Virus record (IMG/VR): IMGVR_UViG_3300045988_080839
Coordinates: 1-60,599 of that record
Reading direction: 5' to 3' (one strand)
From: a virus
DNA: 60,599 nucleotides
Below are positions 2,155 to 54,623 of this stretch, in pieces (position 1 is the stretch's first letter; each line of letters starts with the position of its first letter). The notes beneath the pieces were generated by a model that saw only the letters and a program-made list of their open reading frames with translations, was not told where the DNA came from and did no database searches. A program made the translations under genes and the position numbers.

Positions 2155-2551
2155 CTAGATGATTCGCTACAATCTCACAATTTGTAGTTACTGCTTCATC
2201 GTGTATGCTTTGGTGGTCGCAAGTGACACACTACTCACAAGTTCTTGTACACTCCACAGTCGTAAATTCCCGACTAAGCCATCGGTACATACCTATAAAT
2301 TCTTTTTTATTGATTAAATACAGGTTTTCATCTAAATAGCTTTTCCTTTCTTAATATTTTTTTGCTACTTGGTTTTCGTAGACTCACACCGTTACTCAAT
2401 CTTTACCATCAAGGTTCTACCCTATAGTTAACAAGACTTTTTCAACTTGTACTGGATTATATTTCCTAAGATTTCAGTGGTTTTAAGTTACCAACTAATA
2501 CTCTGGATTTTGAGTATCTTTGAGTACATTGACTCACATTTAATTCTGTTT

Positions 2552-7047: not shown

Positions 7048-7729
7048 GCACTTCTGACCGATACTCTTTAGGGATTATCATGCCATAGGTTACGTTTTGG
7101 ACGGACGTAGAATCTTCCATTGAATTGATATAGATACGCAAATCTCTGAAATACGTTACCGCATACGTAACCGCCTGCATAGCTGTTTCCGTAATCAATC
7201 CCATGTCCGTGTTACTGTAGTATTTACATGGTTCATTCACATCTGATGTATGCCACGGTATCTGCGTTTCTCCCTGCGCAACCTTAGTCTGCAATCCCAT
7301 AAGGCTTGTCTGGTCATGGTCTGTCAACGTGAAATGTTCAACTGTTCCGTCTGATAAGGTAACGTCAACACCGTTCTGTATTGATTCCTGCTGTGCAGTG
7401 TTCATTTCTGATATTTTCTGTTCTTTCAGTTTGTCAAGAGTCGGTTCTTCTGGTGTCGGCTGTGGCTGTTTCTCATAAACAGAACCGTCATTGGAAAGCT
7501 GATAACCGTTATACTCTGCGGTTGTATCGTCATTCCTGTATACAGTATTATAGCTGTGGTAAGAATCACCGCCAATGTCAAGTTCTCCTTTTTCGTCTAA
7601 GAACAAATCAAATCCGCTTGTGTCAACGGTAACTGAATCTGAGAATTTCAATGTTACGACATGTTCCGATTCTGGAACTACCGTACATTTTATTAATTTT
7701 TGTGAATCTAAAAATCTTAAAAAAGCCAT
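7013..7729 (-). CDS. Tail-fibre-associated protein (238 aa)
   Basis: ORF track. Last gene of the fibre cluster. The central KEQKISEMNTAQQESIQNGVDVTLSDGTVEHFTLTDHDQTSL segment resembles fibre-accessory domains. Confidence 0.45.
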   Translation of the reverse strand: MAFLRFLDSQKLIKCTVVPESEHVVTLKFSDSVTVDTSGFDLFLDEKGELDIGGDSYHSYNTVYRNDDTTAEYNGYQLSNDGSVYEKQPQPTPEEPTLDKLKEQKISEMNTAQQESIQNGVDVTLSDGTVEHFTLTDHDQTSLMGLQTKVAQGETQIPWHTSDVNEPCKYYSNTDMGLITETAMQAVTYAVTYFRDLRIYINSMEDSTSVQNVTYGMIIPKEYRSEVLADIYASKGIA

Positions 7730-27916: not shown

Positions 27917-29698
27917 TTAATACCTCCTAAATGGGTTGTGGACTGCTTCAGCTTTTGCTGATACTCCTGTACGCATTTCATTTTCAAATAATGCAACTGA
28001 ATCCGGTGCATCATCATGCTTTACTTTTCCGCTTCGTGTTATTGTGGTAAGTTCTTTCATAAACTTGTAATACTGACTCTGCCTGTCCATTTTCTTAAAA
28101 TCTCTGAAATAATAGTCACGAATAATATTGTCTCTGGCGTTTTCCATTCTGGTTATCTTGTTAGTACAGTTGAATTTAAACCTTGCACTGCATCTTCCAC
28201 CCAGTTCTTTTACAATCTCCATTACATCACGTCCGAAATATTCTCCTGCACTGTTGCTTTCAAATGTGACAGTCTTTACATTGTGTTTAACAAGCATATT
28301 TGCGCACTCTGGCTTTGTAAATTGCGTTCCTGCGTTGTCAAATACAACATCTACTATGTAAACCTCATTTCCGTATACATAACCAATAGGCATTGAGCAA
28401 CTGTCTTCTCCCTTATCTGCGCTATCGCAAGCCGCCATGATCGCATCTGGTTCTCTGTCAATTGGTAATTCTTCAAAGTAATTAAGCTCTTTTTCAGCAA
28501 ACATACGCCCTTTTGCTTCAAATGGGGATTGTTGGAACTCTGATTCCCATGTTTCCTCTGAAACAAGTTTACGCTCTTTACGGTAATATTCTGTCGTGAA
28601 TATTTTTCTGATTCCTCGCTTATCTTTTCTTGGAATCTCCCAATTGCTCTCATCCGTAACAGGGTCTAATGCAGGAACGGCTACTTCACGCCACCGCCAT
28701 TCCAGTTCATCAGCTTTATTCTGTAGTGCTGTAATCGGGTCATACAGACTGTATTTAGTTCCCTGTATAATAATAGGCGTACCCTCTAATCTACGTCCAA
28801 GTACATCATCCGTAACTTTTTCGCAAAGGAACTCCAGGCGGTCACGATTCCTTGCTTCTTCGTGGTTTTTTACGCAGTCGTCAATGTATACAAGAACATT
28901 TGCTTCGGTACATCCTACGATTGCGCCATCAATCGGACGGCATGTAAATGTCGGGAAGATATTTTTCTTTTTAAGGTCAATTGAAAGATTTTCAGCACTC
29001 TTGTAATTTTCTCCTATCTTTGTCGCTTCTGGAAATACGCTTAAAAATCGTTGATAAGTACTTTCTGTCTCAAATCCCTGCAGCAATCCACCATAGAATC
29101 TTTTAACAAGTCCTTCTCCTTTACCAACGCCAAATATACTGCCATCCGGGTCACGCCCACCCATCATCATAGCAAGTCTCAATCCGCCTGTAGTTTTTCC
29201 AGTACGTTTAGGCTGTGATACAGACAGAAAATCAAGTTTACCGTCATATATTTCTTGGTAAGCACCTACAACTGGCTGTAATACTTTCTTTCTTGGAAAA
29301 TAAAATCTCTTGTATGGGTCTTTTTCGTCAATCTCAATATATCGGAAAAAGCTGTCTACCAGGTATGCGGATTCCAGTCTTAATACCTCATAGTAGTTAT
29401 TTAAGACTAAAAATTCGGCGTTATTATCTCCGCAGTATATCTCTAAATCGTCAATATGACCGCCGCCTGTGCTTTCCGCAACTATGCTGTCTATTAAGTT
29501 CTTTGTTTTCTTGGAAATTTCCAGTGAGAATGGTATGTCTTTGTCATTATACATACCCCACTGTATAGAATTGACATAGGCATTTATTACTTCTTCGGAT
29601 TCCCCATTTTTAACAATGTTATGGATTCCTTTTCGCTCTATGTAATTGTCATTACCTTTTAACTGGTTTATTAAATCCTTACTTGCCAAAAAGGACAC
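27917..29698 (-). CDS. terL: Terminase large subunit
   Basis: ORF track. Walker A-like SQPKRTGKTTGG. C-terminal nuclease-like half. Immediately upstream of the portal block. The true start may be the TTG at 29689. Confidence 0.85.
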   Translation of the reverse strand: MSFLASKDLINQLKGNDNYIERKGIHNIVKNGESEEVINAYVNSIQWGMYNDKDIPFSLEISKKTKNLIDSIVAESTGGGHIDDLEIYCGDNNAEFLVLNNYYEVLRLESAYLVDSFFRYIEIDEKDPYKRFYFPRKKVLQPVVGAYQEIYDGKLDFLSVSQPKRTGKTTGGLRLAMMMGGRDPDGSIFGVGKGEGLVKRFYGGLLQGFETESTYQRFLSVFPEATKIGENYKSAENLSIDLKKKNIFPTFTCRPIDGAIVGCTEANVLVYIDDCVKNHEEARNRDRLEFLCEKVTDDVLGRRLEGTPIIIQGTKYSLYDPITALQNKADELEWRWREVAVPALDPVTDESNWEIPRKDKRGIRKIFTTEYYRKERKLVSEETWESEFQQSPFEAKGRMFAEKELNYFEELPIDREPDAIMAACDSADKGEDSCSMPIGYVYGNEVYIVDVVFDNAGTQFTKPECANMLVKHNVKTVTFESNSAGEYFGRDVMEIVKELGGRCSARFKFNCTNKITRMENARDNIIRDYYFRDFKKMDRQSQYYKFMKELTTITRSGKVKHDDAPDSVALFENEMRTGVSAKAEAVHNPFRRY

Positions 29699-31733: not shown

Positions 31734-31943
31734 CTACATTTCTGATATATCCTTTATTTCACCATTCGGCAGTTTTACCTTAACTTCGCTCGCAACTACC
31801 TTTATTGTAATTTCCTTTGCCATGTCTTTTGAGTAGATACCTGATATGTTATCAATACTTACCACTCCTTTTACAATTTCGCCATCAAGTGATAATGTAA
31901 TAAATTTTCCACTTGAGTTGTCAAGCAATGCTTCTTTAACCAT
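31734..31943 (-). CDS. Hypothetical protein (69 aa)
   Basis: ORF track 31734..32084. Start moved to MVKEALL, which overlaps the upstream stop (ATGGTTAA). Confidence 0.5.
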   Translation of the reverse strand: MVKEALLDNSSGKFITLSLDGEIVKGVVSIDNISGIYSKDMAKEITIKVVASEVKVKLPNGEIKDISEM

Positions 31944-32160
31944 CTTCCACCAACTTTCTACCGCACATAGGACAATAGTTGATATCAAAATATCCACCTG
32001 CCTTACATTGCTTAAAAATGATAATCCCTGCCTTTTCATCATTGGCGTTCTTGATAATCTTCGCATATGATAAATCCGTAGCACTAGCGCATTGATTGAT
32101 TTTTATATCTTTACCGTAAATAGTATTTTCGTCTTTCCTTTGTCTGCAAAATTCACACAT
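31936..32160 (-). CDS. Zinc-ribbon protein (74 aa)
   Basis: ORF track. CEFC...CPMCG. GAGAGGAGAGAGTGAT RBS. Confidence 0.55.
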   Translation of the reverse strand: MCEFCRQRKDENTIYGKDIKINQCASATDLSYAKIIKNANDEKAGIIIFKQCKAGGYFDINYCPMCGRKLVEDG

Positions 32161-32186
32161 ATCACTCTCTCCTCTCTATGCAGTTT

Positions 32187-32221
32187 CCGTAGGCGGTTCG
32201 GACTCCAAACAACGCCTACGG
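32187..32221 (-). other. Perfect 9-bp hairpin CCGTAGGCG/CGCCTACGG just downstream of the tRNA
   Basis: Read directly from the sequence. There is no U-run after it, so it is more likely a processing or stability element than a terminator. Confidence 0.5.
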
Positions 32222-32233
32222 TACTTGCAAAAA

Positions 32234-32307
32234 TCAGAATGGCAGGAATCGAACCTGCGACCGCCTGTATATAAGACAGGTGCTCTAACCGACTGCGCTA
32301 CATTCTG
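32234..32307 (-). tRNA. tRNA-Ile with anticodon UAU (74 nt, no encoded CCA)
   Basis: Hand-folded cloverleaf: CAGAATG-TA-GCGC-AGTCGGTTA-GAGC-A-CCTGT-CTTATAT-ACAGG-CGGTC-GCAGG-TTCGATT-CCTGC-CATTCTG-A. One G-A mismatch in the D stem. Confidence 0.8.
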
Positions 32308-33340
32308 CGGCGTTAGGTTCAAGTTTTTTACTTGCTCCACACCTAACTAAGTGCAAGGTTGTGTTAGTCAGAGGTTCATCAAAACCACTCTAGGGGATTC
32401 GTTTGCCGCAAAACTGCGCATTTTCACGGTTTACAAAGAATCAGCAATAACATTACATGATCATAAAATTGTACACAAGACGAACTGAAATGATATTAAC
32501 AATTCTTCTGCACTTCTCATAAACTGCTACGCTGATGCACCAGCGCAAACTTCCAAAGTGCCACTTGCTACCCACTGGCTATTGCTGTCACAGTGTCGCT
32601 TATCTCCGCAAGTGTAGTTTTTTAAGATACCTCAAAGCAAACTCTTGATATCTCTTAGCAGATACGGTAATTACTTGAATTACCGATAGTGGCACAGGGA
32701 ATCGAACCCTGTCAGATCAAACCATGCCAACCGCTTTCAAATCTGCAATTTCTAATCACGGAAGGGTTTTCTGTTACCAATAATACCGCTACCATCCATA
32801 AGTCTCCCATCGACCGGAACTATTGCAGTAGCACCCGACTAAGTGGAGATAAGGAATTGATGTGGTGAGGATTTGAACCTCACATGATTGATTTCTGAAA
32901 GCTGCTTGTTGCTAATTACGGACAGTCTCCGCTTATTACTCGGCAAACATGCTATCAATCAGTTTCTTTGCTTGCGTTTACCCATTCCGCCACACATCTA
33001 CTACTCGCGTAGTAACTATTTAAGCTATTACCACTAAGAATTATTAAGTAAAGGGGAATCCGACTGTAACGGTCATATCTGCGTAAGCTATGGTTCGGGG
33101 TTTCACCAAGCGGTCAAGTGTTGTGGAATTTCACTCGACCGATACCAGTCGGACGGTCTCTCACCGCCCTTAACAGTAGTCCTAACTGGTGTAGAGGAAA
33201 TTACATACCTATCTCGGAAGAAAAGGTAAATAGTGTGTGCGTCCTGTCCAAAATGCTGAAAACAGGACTAATAGCAACGGTAGGAGTCGAACCTACTCTG
33301 CCCGTTTTCGTTGCTTGATAAGTTGTAATAGCTTGGATGG
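32308..33340 (-). ncRNA. Candidate large structured non-coding RNA region with three tRNA-like modules
   Basis: 1 kb with no credible ORF. Acceptor/T-arm minihelix at 33272..33315, a 142-nt tRNA-like element at 32858..32999, and an orphan T-arm at 32687..32711. Several perfect 7-9 bp stems. Confidence 0.45.
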
Positions 33341-33356
33341 TTTACATTGTCCATAA

Positions 33357-33641
33357 TTACTCCTTTGGAATTTCGTATATATTTCTGTTTAAGACCTGTA
33401 ACTCTCTTTTTGTGGCGCTCATAGTTTGCATAAGTCCTATTGCATCAAGAGATCGAATGTCAATAGGATTATAAAAATCGTTAATCTCGTCAAATACTTC
33501 CCTTGCACGTTCTGGCGTTTCATACTGCCCTATAACACGTTCCTTATCTCCTACAAGTGCCAATAAATGATTGTAATTTACGGATATAGGCGTACTCTCA
33601 AAATCTACCGACAAATCTCTTTTCTGGCTAATTATTCGCAT
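33357..33641 (-). CDS. Hypothetical protein (94 aa), paralog of 58806..59186
   Basis: ORF track 33357..33737. Start moved to MRIISQKRDL, matching the MRVISQDGTI start of the paralog. Confidence 0.5.
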   Translation of the reverse strand: MRIISQKRDLSVDFESTPISVNYNHLLALVGDKERVIGQYETPERAREVFDEINDFYNPIDIRSLDAIGLMQTMSATKRELQVLNRNIYEIPKE

Positions 33642-33798
33642 TTTCTCTCTTCTCCCTGTGTTCAAATTGGCATTCCAGCATCTTTGATATGTTCTGCCTG
33701 TCGCATTTAATGCCATGACCTTGTCTGAATAACTCACATTCTAAGACTTGACCGCATCTGGAGCACTCGTCTGTAATTTGCTTGCCGAAGATTAACAT
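33625..33798 (-). CDS. Small hypothetical protein (57 aa)
   Basis: Below the cutoff. AAGGAGTCATAGCC precedes the ATG. MLIFGKQITDECSRCGQVLECELFRQGHGIKCDRQ... Confidence 0.45.
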
Positions 33799-33800
33799 GG

Positions 33801-33941
33801 CTATGACTCCTTACCTGTTTTGTAAACGAACATAAGTATTTCAAAAACTGACCATGCCATTTTCACGCCTGCTAACCAGAATAACAATGTTGGCGCCTGT
33901 AACTTAATCAAAATCCATATAAGAATAATTCCTGTGACCAT
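33801..33941 (-). CDS. Small membrane peptide (46 aa)
   Basis: Below the cutoff. AAAAAGGAGTCAAT precedes the ATG. MVTGIILIWILIKLQAPTLLFWLAGVKMAWSVFEILMFVY. Confidence 0.5.
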   Translation of the reverse strand: MVTGIILIWILIKLQAPTLLFWLAGVKMAWSVFEILMFVYKTGKES

Positions 33942-38320: not shown

Positions 38321-38352
38321 AGGTCTTTCGGGGTTCGATTCCCCGACTTGCT
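38321..38352 (+). other. tRNA 3'-fragment-like element (variable loop, T-arm, acceptor strand) in an intergenic spacer
   Basis: AGGTCTTT-CGGGG-TTCGATT-CCCCG-ACTTGCT. There is no matching 5' acceptor strand, D-arm or anticodon arm. Confidence 0.4.
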
Positions 38353-38394
38353 TTTACCCGATAGGGAATAAAAAAATTTAAGGAGGATAAAAAA

Positions 38395-38751
38395 ATGGGT
38401 GTATTAGCAAATGAAGAAAAGGAAGTTTACAGTGCATACGGCATGACCGTATATTGCATTGAAAATGAAAACATATGGTTGAAAACCCATGATACAGTGT
38501 ATACTGCTATCAGAATTGAAAAAGCGGGAGAAGATATAGTTGATATTGGTCTGGATATTAACTATATAGACAAGCGCAATTTTGACAGTTCAATAGATAA
38601 TTTCCTTTGGTGGATTAATGAGGATAAACCGGGGAAAAGCTATACAGAAAGTGCCGTTTATGCGTGGCTCACGGAATGTAATAATTTTCTGAACTATCGC
38701 ATAGAATCACGTAAGAAATACGGTAACAAGTCAATCTATAGCCCCATGTAA
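38395..38751 (+). CDS. Hypothetical protein (118 aa)
   Basis: ORF track. TAAGGAGGATAAAAAA RBS. Confidence 0.65.
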   Translation: MGVLANEEKEVYSAYGMTVYCIENENIWLKTHDTVYTAIRIEKAGEDIVDIGLDINYIDKRNFDSSIDNFLWWINEDKPGKSYTESAVYAWLTECNNFLNYRIESRKKYGNKSIYSPM

Positions 38752-45180: not shown

Positions 45181-46542
45181 CTAAAAATCTTTCAATCTTA
45201 TTTCAATATTTCCATTGCTAACTATTATTTTTTCGATTATACTTTTCAGTAAAGTGTTTTTCTGTTTCTTGTCGATATCAGCCCAGATATCGGCGAGATT
45301 TTTTATGTTCTTAAATACATTTTGTCTAGTTTTATTTGTTTCTATTGCAGATTCTTCCTTGATCTGTTCACGGATATCTTCTATTACTTTCTCAATTTCT
45401 TTAATCATGCTGATAACATCATCATTGCCCTCTGCATACAGGTTATATAACCTTTTACGCTTAGTCTGCTCTTTTTCTAATTGCCCTTGCAATATTTCCA
45501 ACTTGGACTCTTTTACTCTTGGCTTATATTCTGATATATTAGCAGATATTAAAAGTATTTCGTCCTCTACAGCTTTTTCAATATCCGAAGCCCATTCCAA
45601 TGTATTATTACAATTTGGATTGTGGTTAGGAAGATAATGCAAGTCCTTATTTCTGGAACAGCAGTAAATCTTATGCTTTCCATGCGTCCACTTCTGATAT
45701 CTCATAGCGCATCCGCACACGCCGCAATAGCATAAGCCTGTAAGAAGATTAGTTTGTAAGTTGTTGCAATTTACCCTCTTTTTGCTCCTGTTTCTTCTGA
45801 ACTGTTGTGCTTTTTCAAAGGTTTCTTTATCAAAAATAGGTTCATGCAATCCTTGATATAGTTTACCCTTATACGGTATCATTCCAATGTTTACAGGGCT
45901 TGTGAGTACCTGCTTCACAACAAATTCGCTTTTAAATCCTAACATATCACGGATTTTTACGTCTGAATACCCCTGCAAGAATAAGTCCATAGCCCTGTTA
46001 GCCTGTTCTTTTCTCTCCGGAATCGGTATAAGCGTTCCTGTTTCCTTGCTGTAGTTATAGCAGTAAGGTGTATTGCCACCGCCCATCCAGTAACCTTTTT
46101 TGACACGTTCTAACATACCGCCACGCATTCTAAGTAACATGGTATTCTTGTCTAGTTGTGCGAATACCGCCATCATTTGAGTGTACGCCTGCTCCATTGG
46201 GTTATCATAGCTGATACTATCATGTACACATTTAAACTCTACGTTATTCTTTAAAAACACACGCTCAATCAGATAGATACCGTCTACCATGCTACGTGAT
46301 ATTCTGTCAAGCTTAAACGCAACAACATAGTTTACACGCTTACGATCACAGTCTGATACAAGCCTTTGCAATTCTGGTCTGTCCATATTTGCGCCTGTAT
46401 ACCCATCATCAATGTACCAATCTGTAATTACCAGTTCATTTTTTCTGCAATAGTTTTCAATATCTCTCCTTTGGCTGTCTAATCCGTTTCCTTCTTCTGC
46501 CTGTTTCTCCGTAGAAACACGCATGTATGCGACACATTCCAT
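45181..46542 (-). CDS. Large serine recombinase (integrase)
   Basis: ORF track 45181..46596. Start moved to MECVAYMRVSTEKQ (GGAGGAATAAGA RBS). Resolvase catalytic block YMRVSTEKQ...LDSQ...DDGYTGANMDRPELQRL, a Cys-rich recombinase/zinc domain and a coiled coil. Confidence 0.85.
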   Translation of the reverse strand: MECVAYMRVSTEKQAEEGNGLDSQRRDIENYCRKNELVITDWYIDDGYTGANMDRPELQRLVSDCDRKRVNYVVAFKLDRISRSMVDGIYLIERVFLKNNVEFKCVHDSISYDNPMEQAYTQMMAVFAQLDKNTMLLRMRGGMLERVKKGYWMGGGNTPYCYNYSKETGTLIPIPERKEQANRAMDLFLQGYSDVKIRDMLGFKSEFVVKQVLTSPVNIGMIPYKGKLYQGLHEPIFDKETFEKAQQFRRNRSKKRVNCNNLQTNLLTGLCYCGVCGCAMRYQKWTHGKHKIYCCSRNKDLHYLPNHNPNCNNTLEWASDIEKAVEDEILLISANISEYKPRVKESKLEILQGQLEKEQTKRKRLYNLYAEGNDDVISMIKEIEKVIEDIREQIKEESAIETNKTRQNVFKNIKNLADIWADIDKKQKNTLLKSIIEKIIVSNGNIEIRLKDF

Positions 46543-46619
46543 TCTTATTCCTCCATCAGATATAAAAGAATGCGCCATATTTACTACATGACGCATTCTA
46601 CACTATTATATTTTTTTCG

Positions 46620-53376: not shown

Positions 53377-54282
53377 TTACGCAGCCTCCTGTAGTGAAGC
53401 ATAGTATTGCTGTCGCTTAACCATCGGAGGTAACCCCCCGTTAGCAGAGCAAATCCTCCGGTTATTCCAATAGCTGATGAAGTATCTCCAGATGAGGGTT
53501 TTTAACTGTTCTACAGTCATTGTGGTGGTGTCATAACGCCCATAAAGTAATTCCTCTTTGAAGCGTGCCCACATGCTTTCACATCTGGCATTGTCATGGC
53601 ATCTGCCACCGGCACTGTTCATGCTCTGAAGAATACCATATTTATTGATTGCTTTACGATATAACTCGCTTGTGTACTGTGTGCCTCTGTCACTGTGAAG
53701 AACAGCTCCACGAAGCATAGGATATGCCTTGTAAGCATTATCTAAAGTTTGCTCACAAAGGGTAGCCTTCATATTTGTATCCATAGCAAGCCCCAGCACT
53801 GCCAGATCGTAGCAGTCAAAGATAGCTGAAACATACAGTTTTCCATCGGAAGCTTTTATTTCGGTCATGTCTGTAATACATTTTTCAAGAGGTTTTTGGG
53901 CTGAGAAATCTCGTTTGATTAAATCATCTGATTTACGGGCTTCTTTATCAGCTTTTGTAATGCCGTTGGGTTTGCGTTTCGGCTTATGATTAAGACCAAG
54001 TTCTTCCATGACACGATAAACAGTTCTTTCACCGGGAATGTGTACATCTTCAGGATGTTTTAGCTGTAATGCCTGATACATACGGATTCTTCCATACGTG
54101 TCGTTGCATTCATCCTCACTACATATATCAATCATCGCATCTGCCAGTGCCTGATATTTCCAAGGAGCATCTTTTGTTTTTAGGTATTTGTTAAATGCCT
54201 GTCTGGAAACATGAAGCACTTTACAATAAAAAGAAATTTTGCCCTTAATCCTGCCGTCATCCGTTTTAATTGCAATAAACAT
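53377..54282 (-). CDS. IS3-family transposase OrfB (DDE/rve core)
   Basis: ORF track. ...ITDMTEIKASDGKLYVSAIFDCYD...VLHSDRGTQYTS...NARCESMWARFKEE is a DDE pattern. Confidence 0.85.
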   Translation of the reverse strand: MFIAIKTDDGRIKGKISFYCKVLHVSRQAFNKYLKTKDAPWKYQALADAMIDICSEDECNDTYGRIRMYQALQLKHPEDVHIPGERTVYRVMEELGLNHKPKRKPNGITKADKEARKSDDLIKRDFSAQKPLEKCITDMTEIKASDGKLYVSAIFDCYDLAVLGLAMDTNMKATLCEQTLDNAYKAYPMLRGAVLHSDRGTQYTSELYRKAINKYGILQSMNSAGGRCHDNARCESMWARFKEELLYGRYDTTTMTVEQLKTLIWRYFISYWNNRRICSANGGLPPMVKRQQYYASLQEAA

Positions 54283-54623
54283 TAATCTCTGTTTTTTGCT
54301 GACTTCCGACGGCTGGCTGCGAAAAAAGCACTTGCTTCCTCAAGAAATTCGTTTTCTTCCTTTAAACGGCGTATTTCCTTATCCTGCTCTTTAACACGCT
54401 TCCTGAGTTCGATAAGCTCATCATTAAGGGATAAAGCATTCTTGGGGGTATGAACTGCTTCATTTGCACTGAGGCGGCCTTCCTTAAATGCTTTGATCCA
54501 TGTGTACATAGTACCTTTAGGGATACCTAATTCGTTAGCTGCTTTATGCCCGCCAATTTCCTGTGCAAGCTTTACCGCCTGTGCTTTAAATTCGTTGTCA
54601 TAAGATTTTTGGTTCTGTGCCAT
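54282..54623 (-). CDS. IS3-family transposase OrfA (HTH plus leucine zipper)
   Basis: ORF track. YDNEFKAQAVKLAQEIGGHKAANELGIPKGTMYTWIK and LRKRVKEQDKEIRRLKEENEFLEEASAFFA. Confidence 0.85.
   Translation of the reverse strand: MAQNQKSYDNEFKAQAVKLAQEIGGHKAANELGIPKGTMYTWIKAFKEGRLSANEAVHTPKNALSLNDELIELRKRVKEQDKEIRRLKEENEFLEEASAFFAASRRKSAKNRD
54291..54297 (-). promoter_or_regulatory. IS3 frameshift heptamer A_AAA_AAC
   Basis: The zero frame reads GCA AAA AAC. The -1 frame continues KKQRLMFIAIKTDD into OrfB. Confidence 0.65.

Follow-up and report, generated by a model that had tools for sequence, protein, structure and literature searches.

The question raised by this locus is what is encoded by a stretch of about 1 kb that is devoid of ORFs and lies beside a tRNA gene in a phage genome. 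The window, that is the whole stretch of DNA analysed (60,599 nt, positions 1 to 60,599 of IMG/VR record IMGVR_UViG_3300045988_080839), comes from a temperate, siphovirus-like phage of gut Clostridia with a genome of about 60 kb, and the phage genes identified in it include those for terminase, portal, RecT, Rha and a serine recombinase. The region has early and regulatory genes on one side and packaging genes on the other, and lies on the same strand as its neighbours. A sequence-only reading had proposed that it forms one giant structured non-coding RNA, either a member of the GOLLD or ROOL classes or the first of a new class, with a decayed or highly non-canonical tRNA array as the alternative. 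The present analysis suggests instead that positions 32187-33315 are probably an accessory 'tRNA island', a mosaic of separately exchangeable RNA modules and not a single RNA, which would be co-transcribed and then cut by RNase P and RNase Z. On reading the sequence, every element listed by the earlier reading was found on the minus strand where it had been placed, and the features of the island, in the order of that strand, are as follows.

33272..33315, minus strand: module (a), an acceptor/T-arm minihelix, AGCAACG-12 nt-GTAGG-TTCGACT-CCTAC-CGTTGCT-A, with A as discriminator.
33241..33268, minus strand: hairpin GTCCTGT...ACAGGAC directly 3' of the (a) minihelix, present in the MFE fold and kept in all close relatives.
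33019..33271, minus strand: structured spacer S2, found at full length in close relatives only (90-100% identity).
33144..33190, minus strand: the S2 core of about 47 nt, with stem Pa (ACCAG/CTGGT), conserved internal loop TTAGGACTACTGTTAA and hairpin Pb (GGGCGGT-GAGAG-ACCGTCC).
33029..33035, minus strand: orphan 5' acceptor strand AGTGGTA, complementary to 32688-32694.
32998..33015, minus strand: GNRA-capped hairpin TTACTAC-GCGA-GTAGTAG, abutting (b).
32857..32999, minus strand: module (b), a tRNA-shaped RNA with acceptor AGATGTG/CACATCA, an A1:A72 mismatch and discriminator A.
32791..32856, minus strand: HP1 leader of the 171-nt element, a 17-bp hairpin (32849..32803) followed by a 12-nt linker.
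32687..32790, minus strand: module (c), a 104-nt tRNA-shaped RNA with acceptor AGCGGTA/TGCCACT, T arm at 32711..32695, which with the 3' acceptor strand reaches to 32688, and discriminator A at 32687.
32665..32685, minus strand: perfect 8-bp hairpin CGGTAATT-CAAGT-AATTACCG 3' of (c), kept in close relatives with some mismatches.
32308..32664, minus strand: spacer S5, not detectably structured.
32234..32307, minus strand: canonical tRNA-Ile(UAU), called by ARAGORN and by Rfam (66.9 bits).
32187..32221, minus strand: 9-bp hairpin CCGTAGGCG...CGCCTACGG 3' of tRNA-Ile, without a U tract.

The description of the stretch as ORF-free holds in that the minus strand has no ORF of at least 60 aa between 32340 and 33357, the sole ORF above 60 aa being one of 66 aa on the plus strand (33118-33318), and the indels of 1, 3 and 10 nt that relatives carry within the region likewise argue against coding. 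The tRNA-likeness of the three modules so described is furthermore beyond chance, since the T-loop motif GGTTCRANTCC occurs six times in the window against 0.10 expected, four of the six lying on the minus strand within 32245-33293. RNase P, RNase Z and the CCA-adding enzyme act on substrates in which an acceptor stem is stacked on a T arm, and (a) and (c) both present a 12-bp stack of this kind (7+5) with a TTCRANT loop and an unpaired discriminator, while the stack of (b) is 7+6. When a cloverleaf with a 5-bp anticodon stem and a 7-nt loop (U33, purine 37) is asked for together with either a score above the 29-bit Rfam threshold or a default ARAGORN call, 32234-32307 alone passes as a canonical tRNA, as had been claimed for it, and only one in four of the T-arm-bearing units of the window is a decoding tRNA. 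This tRNA-Ile(UAU) matches the heavy use that the phage makes of AUA, which accounts for 35% of the Ile codons in 32 phage ORFs. Neither (b) nor (c) is called as a tRNA by ARAGORN at default settings or with -i, and both are called solely at -ps90 with forced introns.

The notion of a giant RNA, be it a divergent GOLLD or ROOL or a new ornate RNA of 0.5-1 kb with embedded tRNA-like domains, draws on the ORF-free stretch of about 1 kb and on its surroundings. ROOL and GOLLD have been reported near phage tRNA islands (bioRxiv 10.1101/2024.12.08.627333), and the lead was apt inasmuch as ROOL does sit in the homologous island of some relatives (L047, L025, L026, L027 and L216). However, the window yields no ROOL or GOLLD match in Rfam at the gathering threshold, and when 32100-33500 was compared with Rfam 15 by cmscan, no match to GOLLD, ROOL or tmRNA appeared even at E<=10; HEARO, OLE and ribozymes are likewise absent from the region, where at either cut-off Rfam returns nothing but tRNA and noise. 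The negative result for ROOL (RF03087; gathering score 99.1 bits, with a conserved fold that spans about 580 nt and has multiple pseudoknots) is meaningful because the same tool detects ROOL in relatives, with positive controls of 371.6 bits in L047 and 341.4 bits in L216; for the GOLLD model (RF01998; over 800 nt in all, with a conserved 3' domain) the scanned loci gave ROOL, and no GOLLD, as positive control. Blastn of the L047 ROOL against the window produced chance matches of 12-25 nt only. The description of the region as rich in stems is borne out for (b) (fold z = -3.07) and for 33271..33010 (z = -2.74), which fold better than shuffled sequence and to that extent favour a giant RNA, but it fails for the 170-nt element made up of HP1 and (c) (z = +0.31) and for 32686..32308, that is S5 (z = -0.56), which fold no better than shuffles.

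The behaviour of the region was followed in relatives, where blocks, as defined by blastn against 94 related loci and by alignment of relatives, are gained and lost independently among phages with 94-99% identical terminases, and where the phylogenetic spread differs from one conserved module to the next. A single conserved global fold is incompatible with blocks that are independently present or absent in near-identical phages. Thus the 310-nt block 33018..32709 is swapped for 32 nt in L004, L005, L006, L012 and L017, phages of the L001 type are devoid of block 32697..32256 together with tRNA-Ile, the junction falling within GGTTCGATTCC, and L011 is 99% identical to the window as far as the T loop of (b), where it joins the gene at about 31.0 kb. 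Such swaps and deletions are shown by the aligned loci to be the product of recombination, with right-hand junctions inside the common T-loop sequence GGTTCGATTCC. Since L011 and the L001-type phages do without large parts of the island it is dispensable, and any function it has would be accessory. At the homologous site relatives furthermore carry ordinary arrays of 3-6 tRNAs (Gln, Glu, Ile, Phe, Ser, Tyr, Trp, Asn, Met, Pro and suppressors), and an intact tRNA-Ser(GCU) occupies the position of (a), a finding that the sequence-only reading had named beforehand as one that would count against its own proposal. Taken together this makes a giant RNA very improbable.

Module (a) had been taken for a self-contained minihelix, and although its sequence and pairing stand, it is no free-standing design: alignment shows it to be a tRNA-Ser(GCU) with an internal deletion that has removed its D and anticodon arms together with half of the variable arm. 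With the Rfam tRNA model it reaches 23.2 bits, short of the 29-bit threshold, and acceptor and T arm alone are aligned. The intact 85-nt tRNA-Ser(gct) is found at this position in L005, L006, L012, L017 and L018, a different internal deletion of it in L001, L009, L010, L014 and L089, and the acceptor is paired in every form, the intact one and both deletions. It may here be argued that the non-canonical modules are altogether dead pseudo-tRNAs and recombination scars without function, and a deletion derivative such as (a), junctions in T loops and the dispensability of the island in L011 and the L001-type phages all agree with pure decay. However, two independent deletions of the same tRNA-Ser have both left the acceptor/T minihelix perfectly paired, which speaks against decay.

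Module (c) had been described as a T arm and 3' acceptor strand without a 5' partner, but AGCGGTA at 32790..32784 pairs with that strand, the only flaw being a C3:A70 mismatch peculiar to the window copy, as relatives pair perfectly. In phages of the L009 type the 3' strand is exchanged and the pairing restored (AGTGG/CCACT). The acceptor is followed by a D-loop-like linker with an invariant GG and by a long arm consisting of P2, P3 and a tip stem, whose loop TTGCAG (32748..32743) is invariant, and the T loop is TTCGATT. Preceding (c) is HP1, which always starts no more than about 10 nt beyond the point where an upstream tRNA or tRNA-like gene ends; its helix is 99.4% paired, with two compensatory and five one-sided pairs, and its apical loop CTGCAA (32828..32823) is invariant. 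Over 38 distinct sequences of the 171-nt element 97.2% of cells are paired, and compensatory change is seen in 17 of 45 pairs against 0-3 in slid controls, including all four P3 pairs and four of the five T-stem pairs in (c), even if this covariation reflects few independent events in three or four lineages. A covariance model, R1, gives 204.7 bits over 32686-32856. The core 16-mer of the element occurs in at least 120 viral contigs, and (c) with HP1 is 93-99% identical among phages whose terminases are only 82-86% identical. We can conclude that at least one module of the island is a well-supported RNA family missing from catalogues. When 50,697 phage records were searched by blastn in 'distant' mode, tRNA-Ile alone gave a match, a pattern scan of 185,579 species genomes for a prophage copy of the 171-nt element gave no matches, and the element is absent from the terminase relatives in Eubacterium, Lachnospiraceae and Acutalibacteraceae MAGs.

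Several other interpretations of this element were considered and set aside. HP1 does not appear to be an HDV-like 'theta' ribozyme trimming the upstream tRNA, since it is a nested, covarying 17-bp hairpin with no strand for a double pseudoknot, and it has no ribozyme match in Rfam. That the window contains the element a second time in diverged form, for instance as S2 plus the 72-nt tRNA-like gene, is not supported by R1, which scores just 15.8 bits at 33271-33360. The L031-type unit of a hairpin and a tRNA-like gene was considered as a variant that might inform on pairing between the loops of HP1 and (c), but it reaches 24.8 bits only, differs in architecture and is uninformative in this respect. 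An attP core, for which a T arm with a 3' acceptor strand would be typical where integrases target tRNAs, was rejected here, the serine recombinase being 12 kb away and (c) having its own 5' strand.

Module (b) combines its acceptor with a D arm of class II type (GCG-GAATGGGTAAA-CGC) and a 6-bp T stem (GTGAGG/CCTCAC; hence a 13-bp stack) that bears the T loop TTCAAAT, and the place of its anticodon and variable arms is taken by a centre of 89 nt that the stem GATTGAT/ATCAATC closes. Across 90 copies the frame is conserved while the centre is hypervariable both in sequence and in length (57-147 nt), and the T stem is 100% paired with three covarying pairs. Short ORFs in the centres (in the window ATG TTT GCC GAG TAA TAA) are not conserved between centre types and were rejected as genes.

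The spacers are of unequal character. The core of S2 is present in at least 85 loci at about 85% identity, usually just 3' of tRNA-Gln, with 96.9% of cells paired and both-sided change in four of the five pairs of stem Pa against 0-1 in slid controls, a covariation that likewise comes from a small number of independent events in three or four lineages. The orphan strand AGTGGTA at 33029..33035 is, judging from the alignment, what remains of a tRNA-like gene of 72 nt still intact in phages of the L004 type, for in L004, L005, L006, L012 and L017 the sequence AGTGGCAA-38 nt-GGTGG TTCGATT CCACC-TTGCCACT-A stands opposite 33018..32709 of the window. The neighbouring GNRA hairpin has a GCAA loop in L001-type phages and its stem is still paired there. 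S5, at full length, is confined to close relatives and has a 1-nt indel among them; the 46 nt at its end (32353..32308) make up the CACTTAGT-hairpin leader that immediately precedes tRNA-Ile, and its terminal ~52 nt are about 85% conserved in 29 other loci, where they precede tRNA-Phe. CACTTAGT was also considered as a phage promoter and rejected, as it occurs on the sense strand only twice, both times within the island, and three times in the window against 1.9 expected. The stem of the hairpin at 32187..32221 is largely kept in L009 and L089 despite substitutions, and the hairpin received no terminator call.

Returning to pure decay, the absence of structure in S5 and its narrow distribution are in agreement with it, and so are the acceptor defects of the window copies (C3:A70 in (c), A1:A72 in (b)), by which the copies of this particular phage could indeed be decaying. 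It is however in poor agreement with the compensatory changes that keep the helices of (c), of HP1, of the T stem of (b) and of stem Pa, with the conservation of the 171-nt element above that of the terminase protein across the family, and with the invariance of both loops and of the elbow GG. Functionless decay is therefore a rather unlikely account of the island as a whole. The alternative entertained originally, a decayed or highly non-canonical tRNA array, was thus essentially right, save that the array is not only decayed, the helices of (b), (c) and the S2 core being compensated.

A further possibility is that (b) and (c) are real tRNA genes with short inserts, other than group I introns, that are excised by some phage or host activity. 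Removal of 34 nt at 37/38 would turn (c) into a tRNA without a D stem but with a 9-bp anticodon helix, in which a 5-bp stem (AAACC/GGUUU) carries the 7-nt loop CUUCCGU with anticodon UCC (UCU and UUG in other lineages); in (b) the insert would lie at 31/32, with 11-59 nt in the family, beside the loop UUCAGAA (anticodon CAG), and the invariant HP1 and insert loops would form the recognition structure. ARAGORN in intron mode at lowered threshold does call (c) as a tRNA-Gly(UCC) with a 34-nt intron and (b) with a 58-nt intron, and canonical-looking loops (Y32 U33 NNN R37) adjoin one strand of the closing stem in both modules as well as in (b) types 57 and 60 (UUGAAAC) and in L215 (UUUGGAA). Moreover, acceptor type and loop type are mostly coupled in (c), its insert keeps a constant length of 34-35 nt, P3 is reminiscent of the pairing between anticodon and intron in eukaryotic pre-tRNAs, and 'enigmatic introns', of which one is in turn predicted to resemble a tRNA, have been described in the tRNAs of Lak megaphages (Devoto et al. 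2019, PMC6784885). On the other hand, position 33 of (c) is not conserved and may be U, C, A or G, one loop has 8 nt, and the UUG class has C37; no bulge-helix-bulge motif is found, and 34-59 nt is far below the size of group I introns. In addition, the single frame of (b) comes with differing supposed anticodons, the ARAGORN calls appear at lowered thresholds only, a scan of 20 window ORFs revealed neither a splicing endonuclease nor a ligase, and an insert-free allele of (b) or (c) was found in none of 218 loci. We consider splicing improbable for these reasons, but if true it would mean that a bacterial virus has tRNA splicing assisted by protein or RNA.

The layout of (c), with an acceptor, an unpaired D-loop analogue containing GG, a long helix at the site of the anticodon arm and 1 nt before the T arm, is also that of the tRNA-like domain of tmRNA, and a tmRNA or another known tRNA mimic such as YrlA/Y RNA has therefore to be weighed. 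The tmRNA mode of ARAGORN finds none, however, and Rfam has no match to tmRNA or Y-RNA-like models at E<=10. The G3:U70 pair is missing, position 3:70 being C-G or U-A in (c) and A-U in (b), the 45-nt arm of (c) has no tag frame, and the inserts of 45-89 nt have no consistent one. In YrlA and bacterial Y RNA, which are encoded near rsr (TROVE), the 5' and 3' ends of the tRNA-like domain form the Ro-binding stem, so that the ends lie in the long stem, whereas (b) and (c) end in the acceptor stem and close their long arm with a loop. The scan of 20 window ORFs also revealed neither an SmpB nor a Ro (TROVE) gene, and membership in any of these classes seems exceedingly improbable.

For the mosaic of modules that we favour, expression may be envisaged as follows. 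On the minus strand of 31900-33900 the search turned up neither a sigma-70-type promoter nor an intrinsic terminator, apart from T arms scored as stems, and transcription of the island by read-through from the upstream operon is inferred from this lack of sense-strand signals. RNase P and RNase Z accept acceptor/T-arm minihelices as substrates, and the host enzymes would thus cleave at each acceptor/T-arm module in a manner of 'tRNA punctuation', the predicted products being tRNA-Ile, about 44 nt of (a), about 143 nt of (b), an HP1 leader of about 66 nt and about 104 nt of (c) plus CCA. The tRNA-shaped parts would then provide processing signals and stability, with the selected function residing in the inserts. 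For (c) this function may be placed in the loops CUGCAA and UUGCAG, both of them invariant and each complementary to the other. A loop-loop complex is one candidate role; as another, a factor reading a GCA (Cys-type) anticodon loop might be mimicked or titrated. It should be mentioned that covariation is uninformative on the pairing of the two loops because both are invariant, and that the palindrome UGCA by itself accounts for four of the six pairs.

The island of this abundant family of human-gut Clostridia phages hence appears to be an exchange site for structured RNAs, among them tRNAs, suppressors and, in some members, ROOL. At least three of its conserved modules are absent from Rfam 15, namely the 171-nt unit, the class II frame of (b) and the S2 core of about 47 nt, and a search of the literature on phage tRNA-like RNAs without anticodons found no description of them. 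Phage tRNA islands are usually annotated as lists of tRNAs and the remainder ignored; the modules offer small, testable objects for asking what the non-tRNA RNAs of such islands do, ROOL and GOLLD included, and whether the 'enigmatic introns' of phage tRNAs are spliced. A practical warning is that a stem-rich kilobase next to a tRNA need not be one RNA.

Compared with known systems, the island shares with ROOL and GOLLD a phage genome and a position abutting a tRNA, although location does not define membership, and both of its invariant loops contain the palindrome UGCA, reminiscent of the palindromic kissing loops of those RNAs; in contrast to them its modules are of 44-260 nt, independently mobile and without a conserved global fold. 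From tmRNA, (c) differs in having 104 nt against about 350 nt and neither an mRNA-like segment nor pseudoknots. Non-decoding tRNA shapes that serve as RNase P/Z signals or are co-processed with tRNAs to give stable small RNAs are known from the mascRNA of MALAT1, the tRNA-miRNA units (TMERs) of murid herpesvirus 68 and 'species 1 and 2' of the T4 tRNA cluster, and the likeness to these is a functional analogy only, their sequences being unrelated; the mascRNA model is the sole, weak match of (c) in Rfam (17.3 bits, E = 2.3). As in the Lak tRNAs, compared here by description only, tRNA frames are broken by conserved inserts, and the tRNA-like Lak intron has a counterpart in the T-arm pieces nested in some centres of (b) and in the nested layout of 33035..32688. 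The hosts are however different, a siphovirus-like phage of Clostridia against a megaphage of Prevotella, and in the present island removal of the insert leaves no clean anticodon stem-loop and no insert-free alleles were found. A further parallel is offered by phage tRNA gene arrays, those with non-functional or odd tRNA-like genes included, with which the island has in common the niche upstream of packaging genes and on the strand of the neighbours, a canonical tRNA that fits the codon use, and the 3-6 tRNAs of its relatives. It departs from them in that the other T-arm units are conserved in shape without an anticodon arm, and in that conserved, structured modules that are not tRNAs are interleaved among them.

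The tRNA-like, stem-rich island described in the sequence-only reading is confirmed, every motif and position quoted there being recovered on the minus strand, and its canonical tRNA-Ile is found by both ARAGORN and Rfam. As to the claim that 32308-33340 is free of ORFs, the minus strand has none of at least 60 aa in 32340-33357. With 0.10 expected, the window has six occurrences of the T-loop motif GGTTCRANTCC, four of them on the minus strand within 32245-33293. Module (b) (z = -3.07) and 33271..33010 (z = -2.74) have better folding energies than shuffled sequence, whereas a 170-nt element (z = +0.31) and 32686..32308 (z = -0.56) do no better than shuffles. The island is located some 2.6 kb upstream of the gene for the terminase in a phage genome whose minus strand carries nearly all genes and which also encodes RecT, Rha and an HNH endonuclease. 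The terminase is without close relatives in 50,697 deposited phages, where the top match (48% identical) is from a human faecal contig; relatives are encoded by 256 IMG/VR contigs, and prophage relatives with 71-79% identity are found in MAGs of Eubacterium, Lachnospiraceae and Acutalibacteraceae.

Features of the window
2188-2260, minus: RAGATH-18 RNA (RF03064), 73.4 bits (gathering score 44.9); close to the end of the late region, far from the island and unrelated to it
27917-29698: large terminase
32234-32307, minus: tRNA-Ile(UAU)
32664..32308, minus: spacer S5
32856..32686, minus: module (c) with its leader hairpin HP1
32999..32857, minus: module (b)
33271..33019, minus: spacer S2, core at 33190..33144
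33315..33272, minus: module (a)
38326-38353, plus: orphan T arm and 3' acceptor strand (CGGGG TTCGATT CCCCG ACTTGCT) just upstream of the plus-strand gene 38395-38751, with a 5' partner no longer than 3 nt; possibly the remnant of a tRNA or a core of att-like type
45181-46596, minus: large serine recombinase, likely the integrase
53377-54623, minus: IS3-family transposase pair (rve and HTH_21 domains), within the phage genome

The notion that the island belongs to the GOLLD or ROOL class finds no support in covariance-model searches. At gathering thresholds cmscan of the whole window returned only tRNA and RAGATH-18, and with permissive filters at E<=10 the scan of 32100-33500 added a tRNA match of 23.2 bits on minihelix (a), a mascRNA match of 17.3 bits on the T arm of (c) and noise, with no Rfam match to GOLLD, ROOL or tmRNA; ARAGORN, relaxed settings included, likewise found no tmRNA. 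The negative ROOL result is informative, since the same tool detects ROOL in the related loci L047 and L216, and the L047 copy has only chance 12-25-mers in common with the window. The window phage thus carries neither ROOL nor GOLLD, nor tmRNA. The contextual lead was nonetheless sound, in that ROOL and GOLLD lie by phage tRNA islands (bioRxiv 10.1101/2024.12.08.627333) and ROOL copies of 341-372 bits sit between tRNA genes in the homologous island of relatives.

Features of related loci
L047:6423-6980: ROOL RNA, 371.6 bits, flanked by tRNA-Phe and tRNA-Ser in the homologous island
L216:2744-3324: ROOL RNA in a Lachnospiraceae prophage, 341.4 bits
L025:5084-5633, L026:6228-6777, L027:2833-3382: the same ROOL RNA, 97% identity
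L047:1892-1960, L057:2578-2647, L024:537-605, L031:2727-2795, L033:2046-2114 and others, minus strand of the loci: hammerhead ribozymes of type II with 46-69 bits, present in most of the scanned relatives at some 7-9 kb upstream of the terminase; the window has none at threshold
L217:719-788: int-alpA RNA (RF02996, 49.6 bits), directly 3' of a tRNA in a Lachnospiraceae prophage relative
L063:6367-6449, L065:5260-5342, L066:2667-2749: 'tRNA-Leu(caa)' of ARAGORN, in which the acceptor stem has 8 bp and the anticodon arm is replaced by ACTGC/GCAGT, a 5-bp stem capped by the tetraloop AATA; a further non-decoding tRNA-shaped type of the phage family
L031:7147-7279 (also L032): another hairpin and tRNA-like unit (Rfam tRNA, 42.7 bits at 7208-7278), in which the 5' leader (CCUC..UGUGCGC) and the unstructured centre of the tRNA-like part (GCGCACA..GAGG) are complementary, so that the two may pair
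L215:4202-4332: tRNA frame of a Eubacterium sp. MAG prophage (Rfam tRNA, 35.6 bits, above threshold)

Blocks were defined by blastn of 33800..31901 against 94 related loci and by multiple alignment of the closest loci, in which 1-, 3- and 10-nt indels distinguish relatives within the stretch. Block 33018..32709, comprising a GNRA hairpin, (b), HP1 and most of (c), is swapped for 32 nt in L004, L005, L006, L012 and L017, where its flanks form a 72-nt tRNA-like gene, AGTGGCAA-38 nt-GGTGG TTCGATT CCACC-TTGCCACT-A. Block 32697..32256 (S5, with the end of (c) on one side and most of tRNA-Ile on the other) is missing in L001-type phages, with the junction within GGTTCGATTCC, common to two T loops, and L011 is 99% identical to the window as far as the T loop of (b) and then jumps to the gene at about 31.0 kb. 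The terminases of these phages are 94-99% identical. A conserved global fold of a single RNA could not tolerate such swaps; judged by its alignments the stretch is a mosaic of blocks with independent histories in near-identical phages, not one RNA, and its interpretation as a giant RNA finds no support. At the same site, phages that are more distant (82-86% terminase identity) carry ordinary arrays of 3-6 tRNAs, with Gln, Glu, Ile, Phe, Ser, Tyr, Trp, Asn, Met and Pro tRNAs and UAA and UAG suppressors, an outcome that the sequence-only reading had itself named as refuting its proposal; tRNA-Cys is absent from every array in the phage family. The suppressors (anticodon tta in L042, L045, L051 and L053, cta in L064, none in the window) hint at stop-codon recoding in part of this family. 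The alternative of a non-canonical tRNA array is supported, in a refined form. Three conserved structured modules absent from Rfam 15 are a modest but real addition; one shows strong covariation, and all three sit in the island where sister phages carry ROOL.

The best-supported element of the island is (c) with its leader. This 171-nt element is found directly 3' of tRNA-Ser, tRNA-Trp or a (b)-type gene and is 93-99% identical in phages with 82-86% identical terminases; at least 120 viral contigs contain its core 16-mer, and R1, a covariance model of the element, finds exactly one copy per phage and no diverged second copy in the window. Around a core 14-mer 169 candidate stretches were taken (96 distinct; a few turned out non-homologous), and covariation was measured on 38 distinct sequences. 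The proposed structure, made up of HP1 (17 bp), the acceptor (7 bp), the long-arm helices P2 (8 bp) and P3 (4 bp), a tip stem (4 bp) and the T stem (5 bp), is 97.2% paired, and 17 of its 45 pairs (139 cells) change on both sides, compared with 0-3 pairs and 32-46% pairing when slid by 1-3 columns, while none of 500 shuffles reached the observed value. Within (c), covariation is seen at every one of the four P3 pairs and at four of the five pairs of the T stem. This T arm had been taken as partnerless, which is incorrect, since a 5' partner exists (AGCGGTA at 32790..32784). In the window copy the acceptor has a C3:A70 mismatch as a consequence of T-loop exchange, through which the 72-nt gene supplied the 3' strand CCACT; the L009-type copy has AGTGG and a perfectly paired acceptor, and this restored pairing points to selection on the stem.

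Module (a) corresponds to an intact 85-nt tRNA-Ser(GCU) in L005, L006, L012, L017 and L018, whose D and anticodon arms, together with half of the variable arm, are deleted in the window, L004 and L011, and L001, L009, L010, L014 and L089 show a different internal deletion; in both forms a fully paired acceptor stands on the T arm (AGCAACG/CGTTGCT and GGTAACG/CGTTACC). The 90 copies of (b) have two conserved frames in common, a 5' frame TGATGTG-TG-GCGGAATGGGTAAACGC with a class II (Leu/Tyr-like) D arm and a 3' frame of a 6-bp T stem followed by CACATCA and A; the window type has an A1:A72 mismatch. Across 14 distinct frames the T stem (GTGAGG, GCGAGG, GTGTGG, GCGTGG or GCATGG) is 100% paired; three of its pairs show changes of both bases, slid controls giving 0-1. 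The centres differ wholly in sequence and length between types (57, 60, 74, 89, 101-104 and 147 nt), some hold additional T-arm-like pieces, and an anticodon arm is absent from all of them. ARAGORN calls the window (b) only with -ps90 and a forced 58-nt intron, and that (b) and (c) are intron-bearing tRNAs is indeed conceivable, inasmuch as removal of 34 nt from (c) leaves AAACC-CUUCCGU-GGUUU, a loop Y-U-NNN-R lies beside one closing-stem strand in (b), in its 57- and 60-nt variants and in the L215 frame, and tRNAs of Lak megaphages have similar 'enigmatic introns' (PMC6784885). In L215, 74 nt replace the anticodon arm; the stem there is CUGUC/GACAG, its 3' strand immediately preceded by a loop-like UUUGGAA, which is the same layout as in the window copy of (b). 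Introns are however made very improbable by the facts that position 33 of (c) is variable and one class has C37, that P3 pairs its supposed anticodon loop, that the bulge-helix-bulge motif is absent, and that no splicing enzyme was seen in the 20 window ORFs scanned and no insert-free allele in 218 loci.

The core of S2 combines stem Pa and hairpin Pb (GGRCGGU-GMGAG-ACCGUCC) with the conserved internal loop U(U)AGGAC..UCUGUUAA, and is common to at least 85 loci at about 85% identity, usually just 3' of tRNA-Gln and with otherwise unrelated flanks. It is paired in 96.9% of cells, and in four of five Pa pairs (CCAG/CUGG, CCAC/GUGG, CCAAC/GUUGG) both bases change, as they do in only 0-1 pairs of slid controls, with about three lineages behind this. 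S5 occurs only in close relatives, with a 1-nt indel and no fold signal, and its last 46 nt are a CACUUAGU-hairpin leader upstream of tRNA-Ile that recurs upstream of tRNA-Phe in 29 loci.

The island is probably transcribed by read-through from upstream genes, since the sense strand of 31900-33900 has no sigma-70-type promoter and no intrinsic terminator. The acceptor/T-arm stack is recognised by RNase P, RNase Z and the CCA-adding enzyme, and because every unit of the island keeps this stack, cleavage of the precursor would yield tRNA-Ile along with several small stable RNAs, the tRNA shape presumably providing ends and stability and the inserts function. AUA makes up 35% of Ile codons, in keeping with a need for tRNA-Ile(UAU). 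Large parts of the island are missing from natural variants, and it is therefore accessory.

The apical loops CUGCAA of HP1 (32828..32823) and UUGCAG at the arm tip of (c) (32748..32743) are exact complements, so that a 6-bp kissing contact is possible, four of its six pairs following from the palindrome UGCA and both loops being invariant and hence without covariation signal. Both loops furthermore contain GCA, and the acceptor of (c) presumably resembles that of Firmicute tRNA-Cys; the element might be entertained as a candidate Cys mimic. Module (c) is without the G3:U70 pair and the coding part of tmRNA, but in its order of acceptor stem, 10-nt D-loop-like linker with an invariant GG, long arm, 1 nt and T arm it has the same layout as the tRNA-like domain of that molecule.
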